Shown: positions 7,991-32,310 of the stretch, in pieces
Layout: each line of letters opens with the position of its first letter
How positions within the stretch are numbered: position 1 is the stretch's first letter
NCBI GenBank assembly: GCA_039028875.1
Contig: JBCCHE010000024.1
Coordinates: forward strand, 3,851 to 67,850
Length of the DNA: 64,000 nucleotides
Reading direction: 5' to 3'
Source: Myxococcota bacterium
GTDB taxonomy: Bacteria > Myxococcota_A > Polyangia > Polyangiales > Houyiibacteriaceae
Position numbers and translations under genes: made by a program
Notes under the pieces: model-generated
The model's input: the letters and a program-made list of their open reading frames with translations, nothing else
Told to the model about the DNA's origin: nothing
Databases searched by the model: none

Positions 7991-8539
7991 TCACCCGTCG
8001 TTGGCGCGGTCGTTCAGGCACTGCGCGTCACCGTCGTCGCAGCCTTCGGGTTTGGCCTCGCGGCCGAGCGAGCCATCGATGGTGTACCCATCGACCATGA
8101 AGCGAACCATCGGTCGGTCGCTTCCCCGCTTGGGGCACGATGGCGTCTGGAGGACCTTGCGCCATTGCGTACCGCTTGGCTGACGCACGACGGCGACGCC
8201 GACCACATAGTTCGCGCCGGGGTCCCGCTCGAACGACCGAAACGCCGAGCGGCCCGGGTACACCGTCACCTCTTCCATCCCAAGGACGGTTTCACCGAGT
8301 ACATCGTCCGGGCGTCGGATCATGTCCTCGAACGAGACCTGCTCAATCTCTCCAAGATTGCTGAGCTGATATACCCGAACCATGGTCGGGAGCGGCTCAC
8401 CGGACGCGTCGGGATTGAGCTCCTCGGACCCCTGGATCCAAAGATTGGCTGGCTCCGGCTTGGTGCAGACGGTGGACTTGTTGCAGGCCGTCAGCGCGAG
8501 GATCGAGGCCATGAAGAGGCCTATTCTGAGGACCACCAT
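7991..8539 (-). CDS. tssJ: T6SS lipoprotein TssJ
   Basis: Lipobox LALTAC; LNPDASGEPLPTMVRVYQL motif; first gene of tssJKLM. Start at 8539 (or 8513) rather than 9031. Confidence 0.93.
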   Translation of the reverse strand: MVVLRIGLFMASILALTACNKSTVCTKPEPANLWIQGSEELNPDASGEPLPTMVRVYQLSNLGEIEQVSFEDMIRRPDDVLGETVLGMEEVTVYPGRSAFRSFERDPGANYVVGVAVVRQPSGTQWRKVLQTPSCPKRGSDRPMVRFMVDGYTIDGSLGREAKPEGCDDGDAQCLNDRANDG

Positions 8540-8758
8540 AGAGGGGGCGATGGTAGAGAGTTGGTGGGCCGTTGGCAATGGTTGACCGATGTTCACCCCG
8601 ACTTGGAGACCGGCGTTCGGCGCCGTTCGGAGCGCCGCGCAAAGGTAGTCCTTCGAACAATTGCGTATGGACCGGCCAGGGTGGACAGACTCAACTTGTC
8701 CAGCACGCCTTCGATGACCGTCCGGTCCTCGAATGGGCGGATCCCCAAGGAGTCGGTC

Positions 8759-9463
8759 ATGAGGTACGTCGTTCGGAGTGGAGACAGCTTGGATTCGATC
8801 GCGCGAAAGCACGGTCTGCCCGACTGGCGTGGGCTCTACGAGGCGCCAGAGAACGCGCCATTGCGGGTGCGGCGCAAGAACCCAAATCAAATACGCCCGG
8901 GGGACGTCGTTCGCATTCCACGCACCGCACCGGCCTACAAAGATCGCGAGGTCGTCATCCGGAAGCTCAAGAAGCTGCAGGCGGACCTCAAGAAGAGCAT
9001 GCAGGCCGAGCTCAAGCTCCTGGCCAAGCACAAACGGGACATCCAGCGAGTGGGGGAGAACGTCGATCTAGCGGCGACACTCGCGACGCTCGCCGTCGAC
9101 CTCACCAAACTGACGCGACTCGGGTACAAGGCCATGGAGGCCACGGGGAAAGACCTCGTCAAGATCAACGCGAAGGCGGCGCCAGGCGCCCTCGATTTCG
9201 CTGGCAAGCATGCGGGTCAGCTCGGAGGTGGCCTGAGGATCACCGGTCAAGAGTCGCTCGCCTGGGGGCTCGGCAAGGTGCTTCTCATCTCGTATTCCCA
9301 GATGACGTCTCCCTCCTACTGGGCGAACCGTTGGCAGAAGTTTCGCACCGGCAAGACGCCGCTCGAGGCTGTTCGCGACGCGGAACGCCAGGTGAAGACG
9401 CAACACGAAGCGATGATTCAGAAGCTCCAAAGGCGAATCGATGCACTCCGGGCCGGTGTCTAG
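8759..9463 (+). CDS. LysM-domain protein with helical/coiled-coil C-terminus (T6SS-associated, function unknown)
   Basis: AAGGAG RBS before ATG 8759; YVVRSGDSLDSIARKHG...NPNQIRPGDVVRIP is a LysM motif; no signal peptide seen. Confidence 0.85.
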   Translation: MRYVVRSGDSLDSIARKHGLPDWRGLYEAPENAPLRVRRKNPNQIRPGDVVRIPRTAPAYKDREVVIRKLKKLQADLKKSMQAELKLLAKHKRDIQRVGENVDLAATLATLAVDLTKLTRLGYKAMEATGKDLVKINAKAAPGALDFAGKHAGQLGGGLRITGQESLAWGLGKVLLISYSQMTSPSYWANRWQKFRTGKTPLEAVRDAERQVKTQHEAMIQKLQRRIDALRAGV

Positions 9464-26316: not shown

Positions 26317-26937
26317 TCAGGGCGCGCTCGGTGCGGCGGCGGGCTCGGCAGGGTCTTCGGGCGCCGGGATACTGGTCGGCCGCGACGACACCTCGGAGAA
26401 CCCAAGTCGGTACGGGGCGCTCGCGCCTTCCTGGGCCACGGACACCCACAACTGCGACGTCCCGAGCGGCAAGTCCGTCCGGAGCACGACGCCGCGACTG
26501 GCGCTTCGACTGTTCTTGCAGACCACCCGTCCGTTCGGCTTTCGAAGAACCAGCGAAAGCGCCACCTCCGCACGACCGAGGACGTTGAGCTGAAGAAAGG
26601 CGGTATCGGCCGAGAGAAGGTAGTCGGGCTCCTCGGAGGTCCAGCCGCGGCAGCGACGGTGGATCGTGTTCGCCGAGATCTCGCCTTCGGCGGTCCCTTC
26701 GACGATTCGGGGATCGGGATTGAAGCCCGCGTGAAGATGCACGGTGCCGAACCTCGAGTCGGAGCGAAGGTACGGGTCGGCTGGCGTATCCGCGGCCACG
26801 GCGGGTAGCGGCGCCAAACTCGGAATGGGCGAGGGTTCCGTCGGTTCGGTGCACCCCGAAACCGGGGTCGCGAGCGCAGGCGCCAATATGAACGCGGCAT
26901 GCCAAAGCCGCGCAAGCCTACCCATGTCTACGACCAC
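26317..26937 (-). CDS. Hypothetical lipoprotein (LxAGFxPDP beta-sandwich domain)
   Basis: Signal ending PVSGC, Pro-rich linker, GTVHLHAGFNPDP...CRGW..EEPD; start uncertain. Confidence 0.6.
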   Translation of the reverse strand: MVVDMGRLARLWHAAFILAPALATPVSGCTEPTEPSPIPSLAPLPAVAADTPADPYLRSDSRFGTVHLHAGFNPDPRIVEGTAEGEISANTIHRRCRGWTSEEPDYLLSADTAFLQLNVLGRAEVALSLVLRKPNGRVVCKNSRSASRGVVLRTDLPLGTSQLWVSVAQEGASAPYRLGFSEVSSRPTSIPAPEDPAEPAAAPSAP

Positions 26938-26982
26938 CCTTGCCTCCTACCGAGGAGAGGCCATCGGCGTCAACGGTGCACC

Positions 26983-27018
26983 AAGAAAAAGGGCCGCTCA
27001 CCGGGAGATGAGCGGCCC
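26983..27018 (-). terminator. Rho-independent terminator of the DUF4397-like gene
   Basis: GGGCCGCTCA-N8-TGAGCGGCCC perfect 10-bp stem followed on the minus strand by TTTTTCTT. Confidence 0.85.
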
Positions 27019-27058
27019 GTGCGCCGAAGCGCGTGGTGTCTAGGAAGAGGATTAGGAT

Positions 27059-27925
27059 TTACATGGCTGGGGGGGGAATAAGCGGGGCAGGATCATCGGC
27101 GTCGATGATGCCAAAGAGTTGGAAGGCGAGGGTGTCGCTCGGATCCTCGTCGACCGCGATGAGGACGCTCGAGACGTTGGGCGTGACTGGGACGTCGACG
27201 ATGAGGTTGCCGAAGAACGGCGGGCAGGTGTCTTCGGTGTAGAACACCACGTCGAGGTTGCCCTCTGCGAGGTCGAGTCCGCCCATCTGCGGCGCGATGT
27301 CGCCAAAGGCGAGGTCAGCCTCCACGTCCGTGCAGGTGGTGACCGGGTCGTCGACTGTGGCGACGGTGACGGGATCGAGGTCGGGGTCATTGGCGCCATG
27401 GCCGATGAACACACGGCCCGAGCCGGCCTCAAGCCCTTCGATGGACGTGTTGAAGACCAGGACGTTGACTGGAACGGCCGGGGGCGGGTCGTTGGTTCGA
27501 TAGGCGACCACGGTCAGATCCGATCCGTCCATGATCTCGACCCCGTCGAGTTGCAGGACGGGCTCTTCACCACCGGGAGCCCCGATGCCAATGTCATAGG
27601 TGCCGGCAGGCAGCTCGATGCGACCCGAGGACTCCGTGTAGGAGATCTGAAGCTCGGTCTCCTCGCCATCGAGGAAGATCGCCACCGCGGTGTTGTCCGC
27701 GGCCGGCACGTCGGGCGCCAAGTGGACCGCAGTCACGGTGCCGCCGCCGAGTTCTCCGCCGCCGGCTCCGCCGTCGCCACCCGTGCCGCCGGTGCCACCA
27801 CCGGTGCCGCCGGTCGCGGTTCCACCCGTGCCGCCGGTGCCAGAATCGCTATCATCCCCACAGCCGACCATGCCGAAACTCAGCATGGCGACGACCGCGA
27901 TACCCAATGTCGTTTTGTTGATCAT
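27059..27925 (-). CDS. DUF4397-like lipoprotein with a GTGG-repeat linker
   Basis: GGAGG RBS; lipobox MVGC; GTGG repeats; VTAVHLAPDVP...LPAGTYDI and second repeat RVFIGHGA. Confidence 0.8.
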   Translation of the reverse strand: MINKTTLGIAVVAMLSFGMVGCGDDSDSGTGGTGGTATGGTGGGTGGTGGDGGAGGGELGGGTVTAVHLAPDVPAADNTAVAIFLDGEETELQISYTESSGRIELPAGTYDIGIGAPGGEEPVLQLDGVEIMDGSDLTVVAYRTNDPPPAVPVNVLVFNTSIEGLEAGSGRVFIGHGANDPDLDPVTVATVDDPVTTCTDVEADLAFGDIAPQMGGLDLAEGNLDVVFYTEDTCPPFFGNLIVDVPVTPNVSSVLIAVDEDPSDTLAFQLFGIIDADDPAPLIPPPAM

Positions 27926-27940
27926 GTTTCTCCTCCGACC

Positions 27941-27973
27941 TGTTTAAGTCATGTCTAGGTCTTGTACAGCTTC
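27941..27973 (-). promoter_or_regulatory. CarH-type operator: three 11-bp direct repeats (n5-TnnACA)
   Basis: Minus strand: gaagcTGTACA agaccTAGACA tgactTAAACA, just upstream of the DUF4397 RBS and downstream of a TTGACG -35-like hexamer (27993-27998). Confidence 0.8.
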
Positions 27974-28046
27974 CTACTACGGCAGCGAGAGTCGTCAAGG
28001 ACTAGAGCTCGCTTTTCTCAGTGAATGCTTGATTGGTGAGAATCTG

Positions 28047-28068
28047 AGGTATAGACATGGGTTCGACA
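28047..28068 (+). promoter_or_regulatory. Two 11-bp-spaced TnnACA repeats upstream of carH (autoregulation site?)
   Basis: TAGACA at 28052-28057 and TCGACA at 28063-28068. Confidence 0.55.
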
Positions 28069-28113
28069 GGATCGTGTCAAAAAACACATTTCCCCCTTAA
28101 GGGCGATGCCTTG

Positions 28114-29004
28114 ATGAAGGACGAAGCCAAGTACCGCGTGGGCATGGTCGCCAAGATGACTGGACTGTCGACCCATACGCTTCGGGTTTGGGAGAAGCGG
28201 TATGCGGCGGTCCTTCCCCATCGAACCGAAGCCGGGGGCCGGCTCTATAACGACGCGGACGTCGCGCGGTTGAGGGTCCTCAGCCGGCTGGTGGCCGAGG
28301 GGCACTCGATCGGTGGAATCGCGGGGCTGCCAACCGTCGAGCTCCAGGGCATGGCCGCCAAGCTACCATCGGCGGAGCCTCAGGGCAGGACCGACCGGCT
28401 CGAGCTGTTGAGGCGACGGTTCATTGCGTCGATCGAGGACCTCGACGTCCTCGGGGCCGAGCAGATGCTGTCGCGTGCCGCCCTTGGAACCGAGCCGGGG
28501 GAGTTTCTGAGGAGCGTCGTGGGCCCGATCTTGAGTGAAGTGGGGGATCGGTGGGAGCGAGGTGAGCTTCGGATTGCGCACGAGCACGCGAGCTCGACCG
28601 TGATGCGAGGGCTTCTGTTCTCGCTGATGCGCCTTTACCCCGCGAGCGACGCCATGCCGGTCACGGTGGTGGCCACGCCTGCAGGCGAGCGCCACGAACT
28701 CGGCGCCCTCATGGTCGCAATGCTCGCCACCATGCACGGTTGGCGCGTTCTCTACCTGGGAGCCGACCTCCCAGCGGAGGAGATCGGCTTCGCCGCACGC
28801 GAAGCGAATGCCAAAATGATCATGGTCTCGGTGAGCAATCTCGACGGCGAGGCGGTCGCCCGTGAGTTCGACGCGATCGAGAAGGCGGCCCCGCCGGGTG
28901 TTCGGATCCTCGCCGGCGGCCGGGCGGCCGTCGCGAACCCGTCGAGCCGGATCGAAGTGCACGACGACCTCGACCAAGTGGAGCGCGTGCTCAACCGCTC
29001 GTGA
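28114..29004 (+). CDS. carH: CarH/LitR-type MerR regulator with a cobalamin-binding domain
   Basis: MerR HTH (TLRVWEKRY...RTEAGGRLY); W-x9-EH (WERGELRIAHEH); ExHxxG (ERHELG); YLGADLP; AGG. Confidence 0.9.
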   Translation: MKDEAKYRVGMVAKMTGLSTHTLRVWEKRYAAVLPHRTEAGGRLYNDADVARLRVLSRLVAEGHSIGGIAGLPTVELQGMAAKLPSAEPQGRTDRLELLRRRFIASIEDLDVLGAEQMLSRAALGTEPGEFLRSVVGPILSEVGDRWERGELRIAHEHASSTVMRGLLFSLMRLYPASDAMPVTVVATPAGERHELGALMVAMLATMHGWRVLYLGADLPAEEIGFAAREANAKMIMVSVSNLDGEAVAREFDAIEKAAPPGVRILAGGRAAVANPSSRIEVHDDLDQVERVLNRS

Positions 29005-29629
29005 CTGGGGGCCCTGGCGGCACGCTTTCATGCGCGGCGCCCTTGATGACCTTCTGAGCCAAGGTCGCCAAGCTTCGCGCACCGCTCTTCTTCAGAAGCG
29101 ATCGAATCTGCGCCTTGACCGTGTTTTCGGCGACCCCGAGGGCGTCCGCGAGCTCTTTTCGAGAGAGTCCATCGACCGACAACGTCAGCAGTTCGGTTTC
29201 GCGGCGCGTCAACCGAAGTTGTCGAGCGAGGTGCTCGATACGTTGGCCGATCGCGGCGTCGTCGACCCGCTCTTGCGCGAGGGCGCGTTGGATGAACGGG
29301 TTGAGGTTGTCGGCGGACGCGGGCTTGCAAACGTACTCGCCTCGCATCGTCTGCACTTTGTTAACTACATCACGATTAAGCTCACCCGTCAGGACCAGAA
29401 CGGGGAGCGCACCGTATTGCTCCCGGATCTCCGCCAGAAGGTCGAGGCCGTAGCCGTCGGGCAGGATCAGGTCGAGGACGACACCAGTCCACTCGGCGTG
29501 CGTTCCAAGTTTGTCGCGCGCCGCCGCCATGTTGTGAACGACGTCGACGGGGCCATGGCGCCCGAACGTTCTTGCCAGCGTTCGGGCCAGGGTCGGCTCG
29601 TCCTCTACGATCAGAAAGCCACCGGGCAT
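28991..29629 (-). CDS. Orphan response regulator (REC + LuxR HTH)
   Basis: LIVEDE, LDLILPDG, LTG, KP; LTRRETELL...LGVAENTVK. Confidence 0.9.
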   Translation of the reverse strand: MPGGFLIVEDEPTLARTLARTFGRHGPVDVVHNMAAARDKLGTHAEWTGVVLDLILPDGYGLDLLAEIREQYGALPVLVLTGELNRDVVNKVQTMRGEYVCKPASADNLNPFIQRALAQERVDDAAIGQRIEHLARQLRLTRRETELLTLSVDGLSRKELADALGVAENTVKAQIRSLLKKSGARSLATLAQKVIKGAAHESVPPGPPVTSG

Positions 29630-29860
29630 GCGGCGTAAGCTAACCCAGTTGACCCGTCCGGTGGTACCGATTCCGGCCAGAGGACGATGTTTTTAACCCC
29701 TAAACGGATCTTCAGCATTCTAGCGTCGCTCGAAAGGCTTTGATTTCGAAGGCTTAGCGAAGCCCGCGAGACCGTGCCCGGGAGCGGGCGGTCAGCCAGG
29801 TGGGCGAAGAATGCGGGAGACTTGACGCAACGGGTTGGCGCCTCTTCAATGTTCGAACGA

Positions 29861-31477
29861 ATGTACGCGGTGCTGATCACCGACGGGGGAGGCGAGAAGC
29901 GAAGGCTCGATTTTTCGAAGCCTGAGTTGACCGTCGGACGCGTCAACGGAAACGATATCGTCCTTGCCAAGCGCAACGTGTCGAAGCAGCACGCCCGCCT
30001 CTCGCTCGAGGACGAGAAGGCCGTGGTGGTCGACCTCAACAGCACCAACGGCACCTGGGTCAACGGCCGCAAGATCACCGCGCCTCACCCGCTGAAGCAG
30101 GGTGACAAGATCTACATCGCCGACTTCATCATTACGCTCGAGGGAGATTCGGCCACGGCACAGGGAAGCCGAGCGCCAGAGCAAGTCTCAGAGCCGCCCC
30201 CGCCACCTTCGGCCGCGCCGGCGCCGGCTCGGTCGTCGATCCCGAAGACATCGATTCCGGTCCGCACCTCGTTGCCGCACCGGGCACGGACCAGTCGACC
30301 GAAGGACCCGGTCGCGACGAGCTTGCCGCCAAGAATCGAGAGCCGACCGACCGACGAAGCGGAGTTGGGCACGCCTGCGAAGGACCCCTTGGCCGAACTG
30401 ATGCGCCGACTGTCCAAGAGGCTCGATATCGAAGACGTGAGCCCCGAGGCCATGAAGGACCAAGACCGGTGGTCCGCCGCGCGCGCCGCCATCGCCGAGA
30501 CCTTCCTCACCATGCAGAAAGACGGCTCGGTCGACTCGGATGTCGACATGCGTCAGGTCGCACACACGGCGCTGCACGAGATCGTTGGACTCGGCGCGTT
30601 GGACGATGTGCTTTCGAACGAAGAGATCCAGTGGATCGTCGTTAGTGGTCGGGACCGTGTGCTCATCGACACGGGAGAGGGTCCGCGACCTACCGCGCTC
30701 TCGTTCTCATCGGCCAAGGCCCTCGACATCATCGCTCGACGACTTGCCGCGCAGTGCGACCGGCCGCTCGGCGACGAACCGGTGTTCCACGGACGACTCA
30801 GCTTCGGTCCGAGGGTGACGATCCTTCGCCCTCCGCTCGTTTCTCCGGGACCCTTGATCGAGATCCGCATCGACCAAAGCGCAGCACTCGACCAGCTCTG
30901 CGAGGACGGCTGGATGTCCCCCGAGGCCGCCGCGCACCTGCGAAAGGCGACCGCCGAATGCCGCAACATCGCGGTGCTGGGCCCCGCCGGGTCGGGCGTC
31001 TCCACCCTGTTGTCTGCGCTCTGCCAGGAGCTTCCCGAGGAGGAGAACACAGCCTTGGTCGAGGCACTGCCGGACCTCGACGTCGATCGCACCAAGGTCG
31101 TGTCCTTCAGCGCCGCGGATGCGGGCCTGTCGATGTCTCAGACCATCGCCCACGCTTCGCGGCTGCGAACAGACCACCTGGTGTTGAGTGATCTCACTGG
31201 CGCCGAAGTGGCTTCGGCCCTGGGCGTCATCGGCGGGCGTGAGCCAGGGCATCTGCTTGGCGTGCACTGTGCGACGACCAGCAACGCGGTCGAAGGACTG
31301 GTCCTCGCGACGAGCTGTGGCGGAACCGACCGAGCCTGCGCCGCGCAGATGATCGGGAGCGCACTTCACACCATCGTCGCCGTCGAACGAGGATCAACAG
31401 GGAACAAAGTGTCTGCGATCTTTACCATCGAAGGGCACGAAGCGGGCGACGTCAGCTACGAATCGGTTCCCGTCTAG
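29861..31477 (+). CDS. FHA domain fused to a CpaF/TadA-like ATPase fold with degenerate catalytic motifs
   Basis: VGRVNGNDIVL...VSKQHA...DLNSTNGTWVNG (FHA); EIVGLGALDDVL, RVTILRPPL, RNIAVLGPAGSGVST, RLRTDHLV. Start 29861 (or 29849) inferred. Confidence 0.85.
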   Translation: MYAVLITDGGGEKRRLDFSKPELTVGRVNGNDIVLAKRNVSKQHARLSLEDEKAVVVDLNSTNGTWVNGRKITAPHPLKQGDKIYIADFIITLEGDSATAQGSRAPEQVSEPPPPPSAAPAPARSSIPKTSIPVRTSLPHRARTSRPKDPVATSLPPRIESRPTDEAELGTPAKDPLAELMRRLSKRLDIEDVSPEAMKDQDRWSAARAAIAETFLTMQKDGSVDSDVDMRQVAHTALHEIVGLGALDDVLSNEEIQWIVVSGRDRVLIDTGEGPRPTALSFSSAKALDIIARRLAAQCDRPLGDEPVFHGRLSFGPRVTILRPPLVSPGPLIEIRIDQSAALDQLCEDGWMSPEAAAHLRKATAECRNIAVLGPAGSGVSTLLSALCQELPEEENTALVEALPDLDVDRTKVVSFSAADAGLSMSQTIAHASRLRTDHLVLSDLTGAEVASALGVIGGREPGHLLGVHCATTSNAVEGLVLATSCGGTDRACAAQMIGSALHTIVAVERGSTGNKVSAIFTIEGHEAGDVSYESVPV

Positions 31478-31512: not shown

Positions 31513-32310
31513 TCAGGCGCCCTTGCTCATGACCTCTCGCGGGGTGGCGCTGACACCCGGCGCAGGATACGCGGGCCGGGCAAAGTAGTAGCCCTGGCCA
31601 TAGTGCGCACCACAATCGACGACGACCTTCATCTCGGTCTCCTGCTCGATTCCTTCCGCGACGACGCGGGCTCCGAGTTCGTGGCAGAGTCGCACGATGT
31701 GCCGCACCAAGACTTGAGCGCGACGGTCGTCTGCGAGGTCGGCGATGAGCGTACGATCGAGTTTGACGATCTCCGGCTTGAGATCGACGATGTACTTGAG
31801 GTTGGAGTACCCGGCGCCGAGGTCATCGACGGCGAGGGAAACGCCCTTTCCACGGATCTCGCGAAGCACGCTGTGGCAGTAGGCAAAGTGGGTCAACGGC
31901 ACCGACTCGGTCACCTCGAGGTAGATCGGCTGATCGTGTGTGAAGATCGGATCGTCGGGCTGAACGAGCCAAGACTCGTCGAACTCGTTCGGGTGCACGT
32001 TGAGGAAGAGCGGAGCGCCGCCGCAGTTTGCGGTGGCGATCTCCCGAATCGCGCGACCGAGCGCGCCGACGCATCGGCTCTTGATCGCCTCGTCGAACAA
32101 CTTGGGCGGGTTGATCCAATGCGGTGAATCACTGCGAACGAGCGCTTCGTACGCGAACGGCTCCATCGTCGTCAGCGACACGATCGGCTGGTAGACGACG
32201 CTCAGGTCGCCTCGCGCCAACACGCCAGGGAGGCCCTTGACGCTACGCAGTCGGGGGATCCCCGACCTGCGTTGCTGGGTCTGCTTCAACCAGTTCCCGA
32301 AATTCGTCAC
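31513..32310 (-). CDS. Stand-alone EAL-domain c-di-GMP phosphodiesterase
   Basis: YQPIV, EALVR, LFLNV, EVTE, DDLGAGYS, KLDR, AEGIE, QGYYFARP. Confidence 0.92.
   Translation of the reverse strand: MTNFGNWLKQTQQRRSGIPRLRSVKGLPGVLARGDLSVVYQPIVSLTTMEPFAYEALVRSDSPHWINPPKLFDEAIKSRCVGALGRAIREIATANCGGAPLFLNVHPNEFDESWLVQPDDPIFTHDQPIYLEVTESVPLTHFAYCHSVLREIRGKGVSLAVDDLGAGYSNLKYIVDLKPEIVKLDRTLIADLADDRRAQVLVRHIVRLCHELGARVVAEGIEQETEMKVVVDCGAHYGQGYYFARPAYPAPGVSATPREVMSKGA

Follow-up and report, generated by a model that had tools for sequence, protein, structure and literature searches.

We report that an adenosylcobalamin (AdoCbl)-dependent, light-released repressor of the CarH/LitR family probably controls three sets of genes in a myxobacterium of the family Houyiibacteriaceae (order Polyangiales): its own gene, the carotenoid biosynthesis genes, and a gene coding for a lipoprotein with a DUF4397 domain. 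The regulator, hereinafter CarH1, and the lipoprotein are encoded divergently in a 64,000-nucleotide stretch (the window, to which all coordinates without a contig or locus name refer) of contig C24 (JBCCHE010000024.1) of assembly GCA_039028875.1, a genome of 5.06 Mb in 106 contigs, 97% complete and with 63.6% G+C. CarH has served as a model for B12-based photoreceptors and is used in optogenetics; most of the natural outputs known for it are carotenoid genes. New here is the lipoprotein as a probable CarH output, while the CarH switch is already known; the locus is an extension of a known system and not a new one. The initial annotation of the window, made from its letters alone, had proposed an undescribed system; what emerges instead is a switch of a known kind with a probable new output.

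The carH gene (28114-29004, plus strand) codes for a 296-residue protein with a MerR-type winged helix-turn-helix domain, a B12-binding_2 helical bundle and a Rossmann-fold B12-binding domain, recovered in Pfam searches as MerR_1 (PF13411, residues 7-71, E 9e-17), B12-binding_2 (PF02607, residues 100-168, E 2.6e-11) and B12-binding (PF02310, residues 184-278, E 4e-12), respectively. In the CarH/LitR family a W-x9-E-H motif lies over the upper (adenosyl) face, and the lower-ligand histidine is housed in an E/D-x-H-x-x-G motif. Both motifs were recognized in the initial annotation and both are present in the translation, as WERGELRIAHEH and ERHELG, which align with WHRGEIGVAEEH and ERHEIG of Thermus thermophilus CarH; CarH1 residues 5-280 match the chains 3whp and 5c8d of the latter with E 5.5e-30 and 6.6e-30, respectively. 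Among 18 neighbouring regulators from related loci (that of locus L007 is cut by a contig end) W-x9-EH is kept in every one and ExHxxG in 16, the exceptions being EDHELA in L010 and QLHEFG in L015, a more distant paralogue. The genome additionally has genes for adenosyltransferases of the PduO and CobA types, which allow cobalamin to be converted into AdoCbl. Every sequence hallmark thus supports CarH1 as an AdoCbl-dependent photoreceptor-repressor of the CarH/LitR family, which would bind AdoCbl and be released by light. A longer frame opening with the ATG at 28057 was considered for carH and rejected, since all orthologues align from residue 1 of the form that begins at 28114.

The divergent lipoprotein gene (27059-27925, minus strand) codes for a 288-residue protein, of which residues 63-182 match DUF4397 (PF14344) with 38.6 bits against a gathering cut-off of 30.6, in line with the assignment of the initial annotation. 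Upstream of it lies the operator O-lip (27941-27968, minus strand), three tandem 11-bp direct repeats with the hexamers TGTACA (27963-27968), TAGACA (27952-27957) and TAAACA (27941-27946). The exact spacing of these TnnACA units ahead of the ribosome-binding site (RBS) had been noted at the outset and was borne out, the repeats being placed past the -10-like hexamer: O-lip begins 2 nt past it and ends 4 nt short of the RBS. It fits the published CarH operator, three 11-bp tandem direct repeats of the form nnnnTnnACAn (PMC9304148), and would overlap with promoter elements. The pattern TNNACA-N5-TNNACA-N5-TNNACA has a single match in the window, with none of 100 shuffled sequences matching, and a single match on both strands of the entire 5.06-Mb genome, so that the genome scan suggested by the initial annotation returned O-lip and nothing else. 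The predicted promoter of the lipoprotein gene consists of a -35-like TTGACG (27993-27998, minus strand), in which TTGAC is invariant across 18 of 18 aligned intergenic regions, a 16-nt spacer, and a -10-like TAGGAA (27971-27976, minus strand) within a conserved tA..aa block, which reads TAGAAA in most orthologues. The RBS GGAGGAG (27930-27936, minus strand) is kept as GGAGGAG or GGAGG across the same 18 regions. We also considered whether the -10 hexamer could be in phase with a further, fourth pseudo-repeat, and rejected this by counting in the orthologues, where the -10 sits 8 nt, not 11 nt, from the first repeat.

On the side of carH, a putative -35-like TTGATT (28029-28034, plus strand) in a conserved CAAG/CTTGAT block is followed 17 nt later by a second putative operator, O-carH (28052-28079, plus strand), which overlaps the -10 region of carH and comprises TAGACA (28052-28057) and TCGACA (28063-28068), the two additional repeats that had been pointed out before carH, and a degenerate GTGTCA (28074-28079), all with 11-bp spacing. 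It is kept as TGTCTAAGnnnnGTCTAT on the opposite strand in 16 of 17 aligned orthologous loci, L015 being the one without it. At its other end the lipoprotein transcript is closed by a predicted intrinsic terminator (26991-27018, minus strand) with a 12-pair stem, 9 of the pairs being G-C, a 4-nt loop and a T run, in agreement with the earlier description of a strong terminator and a monocistronic unit. Including the window, 21 of 25 loci evaluated display a similar hairpin and T tract 54-83 nt past the stop codon; the remaining four include loci with tandem gene copies. Across these 21 loci the stem is conserved in sequence too (GGGGCCGCTC...GAGCGGCCCC) and not in structure alone. A search of Rfam with 26500-29500 gave only a sub-threshold match to c4-a1b1 (21.9 against 46.7 bits), which we take as chance.

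A pattern scan of species-representative genomes recovered 26 loci, of which 24 are informative; the other two are L020, for which there is no upstream DNA, and L016, in which a 100-N gap immediately precedes the gene. The three-repeat operator precedes the orthologous lipoprotein gene in all 24, and carH is the divergent upstream neighbour in 19. Hence, the repeats and their linkage are both conserved in relatives, a point on which the initial annotation had staked its reading beforehand. The five loci without an adjacent carH (L003, L009, L011, L017 and L018) nonetheless retain the operator. The intergenic regions are 183-196 bp long, and 18 of them align almost without gaps, sharing the invariant TTGAC, the tA..aa block, the lipoprotein operator and, near carH, TGTCTAAGnnnnGTCTAT, which corresponds to two repeats on the carH strand. 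The operator consensus in this alignment is ...[CT]nGACAAGACCTAGACATRACTTAGACAGGTCGGAGGAG, with a nearly invariant ...GACAAGACCTAGACATRACTTAGACAGGTCGGAGGAG. Strong orthologues of the lipoprotein are confined to a single GTDB genus, in which 32 of 40 genomes match; DUF4397 matches occur in 45 of 251 genomes overall, and beyond the genus the order contains only weak ones. One genome with only a weak match (G138) was not used. Two apparent losses were rejected as artefacts: the truncated carH1 and operator-less lipoprotein gene of G251, which concern L016, are both cut by 100-N scaffold gaps, and the lipoprotein seemingly missing from G011 falls at an N gap. DUF4397 matches occur in three other genera of the family, and two of these again pair a DUF4397 lipoprotein with a CarH-type gene: L092 has a divergent CarH1-like gene (50% identical) and a degenerate operator, and in L093 a CarH2-like gene stands behind a small CxxC open reading frame (ORF) that by eye resembles a DCC-type thiol-disulfide oxidoreductase. 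No such pairing was seen in L091, L094 or L095.

The initial annotation had further held that the photoreceptor is wired to the lipoprotein rather than to carotenoid genes, and had observed that crt and photolyase genes are missing from the window. The latter stands, as PF00494 and PF00875 have no match on contig C24, though both are present elsewhere in the genome; the former does not. Contig C10 carries a crtY-crtE-crtI-crtB operon, coding for a lycopene cyclase, a polyprenyl synthase, a phytoene desaturase and a phytoene synthase, along with a divergent gene for a crtD-like amine oxidase. A 36-nt weight matrix derived from 16 unique operators of the lipoprotein gene in other genomes has just two matches above 8 bits in the whole genome, namely O-lip (58.0 bits) and C10:102998-103033 (22.7 bits), and the second, the only other match, falls in the interval that separates the crtY operon from the crtD-like gene. 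With a generic model of three repeat units O-lip scores 41.5 and the crt site 30.7, against a reversed-genome maximum of 17.9. When other genomes of the genus were scanned with the pattern ACAAGACCTANACA-N5-TANAC, allowing up to 2 mismatches, 16 of 18 were matched, mostly twice, and the controls gave 2 matches in those genomes and 4 across all 31 genomes. At each of the 9 loci with the second type of site, CCTTGACAAGACCTGGACA-N5-TRGACA, the site adjoins crtY, and at 8 of them the crtD-like gene as well. Beyond the source genome, 9 genomes of the genus keep the operator site at crt. The crt and lipoprotein sites have the core ACAAGACCT(A/G)GACA in common. As the crt site was found with models of the lipoprotein site and is conserved at crt, the lipoprotein probably belongs to a classical carotenoid light regulon, as an added and the best-conserved output of it, and not to a separate system. 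The first crt repeat reads TTGACA toward crtD and TTGTCA toward crtY, with a -10-like hexamer 16-17 nt further; it could thus double as the -35 in both directions, such that one bound repressor could block both promoters. In G251 the crt site has four repeats. The region upstream of crtY in G008 (L144, ~1400-1470) contains an inverted repeat (GTCTAGATCT...AGATCTAGAC) where others have direct repeats. A photolyase was also considered as a member of the regulon and rejected: the single PF00875 gene lies on contig C31, where the repeat model has no match above 14. Three genomes (G014, G227 and G206; 95, 90 and 88% complete) have no match to the lipoprotein, any CarH paralogue or CrtY; this joint absence is shared among kin and is not independent proof.

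We posit that in the dark AdoCbl-bound CarH1 would oligomerise and bind tandem 11-bp TnnACA repeats at three places. At O-lip it would sit directly past the -10, over the start-site region of the lipoprotein gene; at O-carH it would cover the -10 region of its own gene, resulting in autoregulation; and at the crt site it would occupy the common promoter region of crtY-crtE-crtI-crtB and the crtD-like gene, covering the -35 of both. Light from the ultraviolet to the green would then photolyse the Co-C bond, upon which the oligomer would fall apart and all three units would be transcribed. The lipoprotein would accordingly be an envelope protein induced by light, and by B12 limitation, made along with carotenoids and most likely serving the envelope under light stress by binding or as a scaffold.

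Several observations weigh against this proposal. The crt site of the source genome has two full repeats and one degenerate one, and G008 has both CarH1 and crtY but no direct repeats at crt. O-carH scores 14.9 in the generic repeat model, under the reversed-genome maximum, so that it is only its conservation that points to this candidate operator. A consensus scan for sigma-70-like promoters at the locus returned none at its thresholds; hence, the promoter hexamers and the geometry of operators and promoters proposed above derive from conservation. A search of sequencing runs for the stretch retrieved one DNA run, a marine metagenome, and no RNA run. The genomes of one genus are kin, and the counts given above overstate their independence. 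Furthermore, besides a MetH-like protein the genome encodes three MerR-B12 proteins, and the two paralogues of CarH1 also retain W-x9-EH and the axial histidine: CarH2 (C15:7864-8808, minus strand; L028 4862-5809), with HLHEFG, and CarH3 (C33 ~8141-9069, plus strand; L060 5141-6070), with QPHEFG. TAGACA repeats are also found in the region of CarH2 itself, and cross-binding, or control of crt by CarH2, is therefore possible. Nevertheless, as to which paralogue may bind at crt, the similarity of the sites favours CarH1.

Control of crt by another regulator, such as CarH2, is the premise of the self-contained light- or B12-switched module with the lipoprotein as its sole output that the initial annotation had advanced. 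O-lip is indeed the strongest and best-conserved site (58.0 versus 22.7 bits), carH1 is physically linked to the lipoprotein and not to crt, and two other CarH paralogues could serve crt, CarH2 being found in 32 of 41 genomes of the genus. Yet the crt site was detected by models trained only on lipoprotein sites, with which it has its core in common, and it persists in the 9 further genomes; the carH2-hemerythrin region stays below 14 in the same repeat scan; and CarH, the lipoprotein and CrtY are jointly missing from three genomes, which together make such isolation of the module improbable. We give somewhat less credence to a switch for B12 status, in which AdoCbl-bound CarH1 would repress a cobalamin-related scavenging or binding lipoprotein when B12 is plentiful, with light being secondary. 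Repression by the holo-form would suit feedback on a gene for cofactor acquisition, CarH-controlled genes of myxobacteria are described as constitutive without B12 in the text of PMC9304148, and the long tether of the lipoprotein would be suited to reaching ligands. However, neither a TonB-dependent receptor nor a Btu gene was found among the eight genes of the locus scanned with Pfam, nor a cobalamin riboswitch with Rfam; the co-regulated partner is the carotenoid cluster, a light-protection trait; the photochemistry motif W-x9-EH is kept in 18 of 18 regulators; and the fold of the lipoprotein matches no known corrinoid binder. All this renders that scenario quite improbable.

The repeats might alternatively be bound by another factor, or be elements of the promoter or untranslated region unrelated to CarH, with the adjacency of the genes being incidental. 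The negative promoter scan leaves room for this, as do the resemblance of TAGACA and TTGACA to promoter hexamers and the fact that CarH binding at the repeats is a prediction. We nevertheless regard it as very improbable, given that three TnnACA units at exact 11-bp phasing occur once in 5 Mb and match the experimentally defined CarH operator (PMC9304148), that the site accompanies the lipoprotein gene and is found again at carH and crt, and that the genes adjoin each other in 19 of 24 loci and also in another genus. The regulation of carH, crt and the lipoprotein gene by one AdoCbl- and light-responsive repressor hence remains the reading that we prefer.

CarH/LitR proteins of Thermus, Pseudomonas and Bacillus have non-carotenoid targets too, including photolyase and folate or riboflavin genes, which shows that the family can control genes beyond crt. 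Judged by titles and the beginnings of abstracts, the papers listed in our literature searches include no CarH/LitR regulon with a DUF4397 or lipoprotein target, and the word "lipoprotein" does not occur in the main text of PMC9304148. CarH1 has the same three-domain build as T. thermophilus CarH (5c8d, 5c8e, 5c8f and 3whp) with the same W-x9-EH and ExHxxG motifs, and, as described for T. thermophilus CarH (PMC9304148), would act at three tandem 11-bp TnnACA repeats; we assume that it forms a tetramer. The -35 of the T. thermophilus target promoter falls within one of the repeats (PMC9304148), whereas O-lip lies past the -10 and reaches nearly to the RBS, and the adjacent target of CarH1 differs in being a lipoprotein. 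Sorangium cellulosum, a member of the same order-level lineage, has CarH operators at crtE-crtD and crtI-carH (Perez-Castano et al. 2022, PMC9304148), in which one three-repeat operator serves two divergent promoters with embedded -35 and -10 elements and the repressor bound at the divergent crt promoters has been footprinted; the site between crtY and the crtD-like gene is laid out alike. The arrangement differs in that carH of S. cellulosum is beside crt (PMC9304148), while the CarH1 gene is beside the DUF4397 lipoprotein gene, with crt on another contig. According to that study, carH lies beside crt genes in myxobacteria, the exceptions being Sandaracinus amylolyticus and Labilithrix luteola, in which it is unlinked to crt and its targets were not found; no repeats were found at the crt promoters of S. 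amylolyticus (PMC9304148). The locus described here would explain where CarH acts in lineages with carH unlinked to crt, offering one answer for such lineages.

The lipoprotein itself has a signal peptide MINKTTLGIAVVAMLSFGMVGC ending in a lipobox, ...FGMVGC, of which G21 and C22 are invariant among 17 homologues, followed by a Gly-rich linker (residues ~23-60) and two predicted beta-sandwich domains. Its AF2 model (pLDDT 69.9, pTM 0.69) is all-beta, disordered up to residue 57 and with two beta-sandwiches thereafter, the second of which is seen only in this model and not by Pfam. In structure comparisons the whole model resembles the two-lobed extracellular domain of PepT2 (Z 13.2, root-mean-square deviation [rmsd] 3.3 over 177 residues), and domain 1 resembles the luminal domain of HGSNAT (Z 9.2-9.5) and the C-terminal domain of AlgF (Z 9.3, rmsd 2.5 over 86 residues). 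These matches of the model to PepT, AlgF and HGSNAT are likenesses of fold and reveal no function, a further point to be set against the proposal above. AlgF acts in alginate O-acetylation together with AlgI/J/X; the lipoprotein is akin to DUF4397/AlgF-like proteins in passing the PF14344 cut-off and in the superposition of its domain 1, but differs in that no AlgI/J/X-type partner genes for acetylation are found among the eight neighbouring genes scanned with Pfam (five of 26317-31477 and three flanking). A profile search of the PDB by sequence yielded at best E 0.005, on the Gly-rich linker, and ESM Atlas gave only DUF4397 clusters. Neither OCP/HCP/CTDH, AstaP nor lipocalin carriers appear among the Pfam, Foldseek or VIA matches, and no known corrinoid binder among those of Foldseek and VIA. 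The lipoprotein has 107 database relatives, the named ones being "DUF4397 domain-containing protein" from metagenome-assembled genomes of Myxococcota, Polyangiales or Myxococcales. We know of no function for DUF4397, and none of the papers listed for it, judged by title and the beginning of the abstract, concerns its function, CarH or light.

A bolder version, in which the lipoprotein is the primary output of the photoreceptor, a light-induced envelope factor working with the newly made carotenoids, is prompted by its having the strongest and most conserved CarH operator, by the retention of that operator apart from carH, and by the CarH-type pairing in at least two further genera; we consider it unlikely. 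In this version the lipoprotein might, for instance, act as a tethered dock or carrier through which a pigment, or some other ligand of hydrophobic or glycan nature, is placed in the periplasm or outer membrane. If true, this would constitute the first function for DUF4397 and a new class of bacterial photoprotection protein. In any event, the best predicted CarH operator of an uncultured marine and soil genus of Polyangiales-type myxobacteria lies at a lipoprotein that is probably co-regulated with carotenoid synthesis and whose domain family has no function that we know of. DUF4397 thereby gains a testable physiological context, namely stress from light or B12 limitation at the envelope, and the locus furnishes a compact, well-defined promoter-operator-terminator cassette. 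Tandem duplications of the operator-controlled lipoprotein gene were observed in some genomes (L022 2922-4397, L023, and L026 4001-~5460), and a second strong DUF4397 paralogue (E 1.9e-63) is encoded within a 729-residue frame of the source genome (C10:3532-4242, minus strand) with no operator match.

As for the paralogues, the gene for CarH2 is divergent from a unit coding for a hemerythrin and an ATP-grasp protein, with the hemerythrin partner being present in only 4 of 30 carH2 loci. CarH3 is encoded by an orphan gene that has Suc_Fer-like and OpuAC genes as neighbours and is preceded by an inverted repeat. In L015 (1101-1877) the regulator beside an operator-bearing lipoprotein gene is 34% identical to CarH1 and CarH3-like (WSEGTLGTAPEH, QLHEFG).

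Upstream of carH2 we additionally found a structured leader RNA of ~165 nt (C15:8811-8973, minus strand, corresponding to L096; also L061 2448-2610), which nhmmer recovers in 26 of 30 carH2 loci. Its long-range stem displays compensatory changes at 9 of 14 pairs; when an inner hairpin is included, the share of cells that pair is 89.3%, as against 37-55% in slid controls, and the covariation score of 0.308 (versus 0.224 ± 0.013) is reached in none of 500 shuffles. The leader has no match in Rfam at E ≤ 1. Within the genus, a covariance model detects it in 46 of the 54 other genomes, usually in two copies per genome, and 33 genomes from 17 further genera of the family gave no match; the second, weaker copy in the source genome is at C11:71714-71876 (plus strand; L097 1501-1663). 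What follows this second copy is, judged by eye, a gene of the glyoxalase family, one whose product has a helicase-like ATP-binding motif (…TPTGSGKS…), or both. These features make the leader a candidate for a new cis-regulatory RNA.

The other neighbours of the locus comprise a response-regulator/LuxR gene (28991-29629, minus strand) overlapping the 3' end of carH by 14 nt and, downstream of carH, genes for an FHA and T2SSE-type ATPase protein (29774-31477, plus strand) and for an EAL-domain protein (31513-32310, minus strand). Directly past the lipoprotein terminator, on the same strand, is an ORF of 206 residues (26317-26937, minus strand) with a lipobox-like ...PVSGC and no Pfam match, a homologue of which is placed identically in L033 (1773-2336), suggesting that it may be a conserved neighbour.

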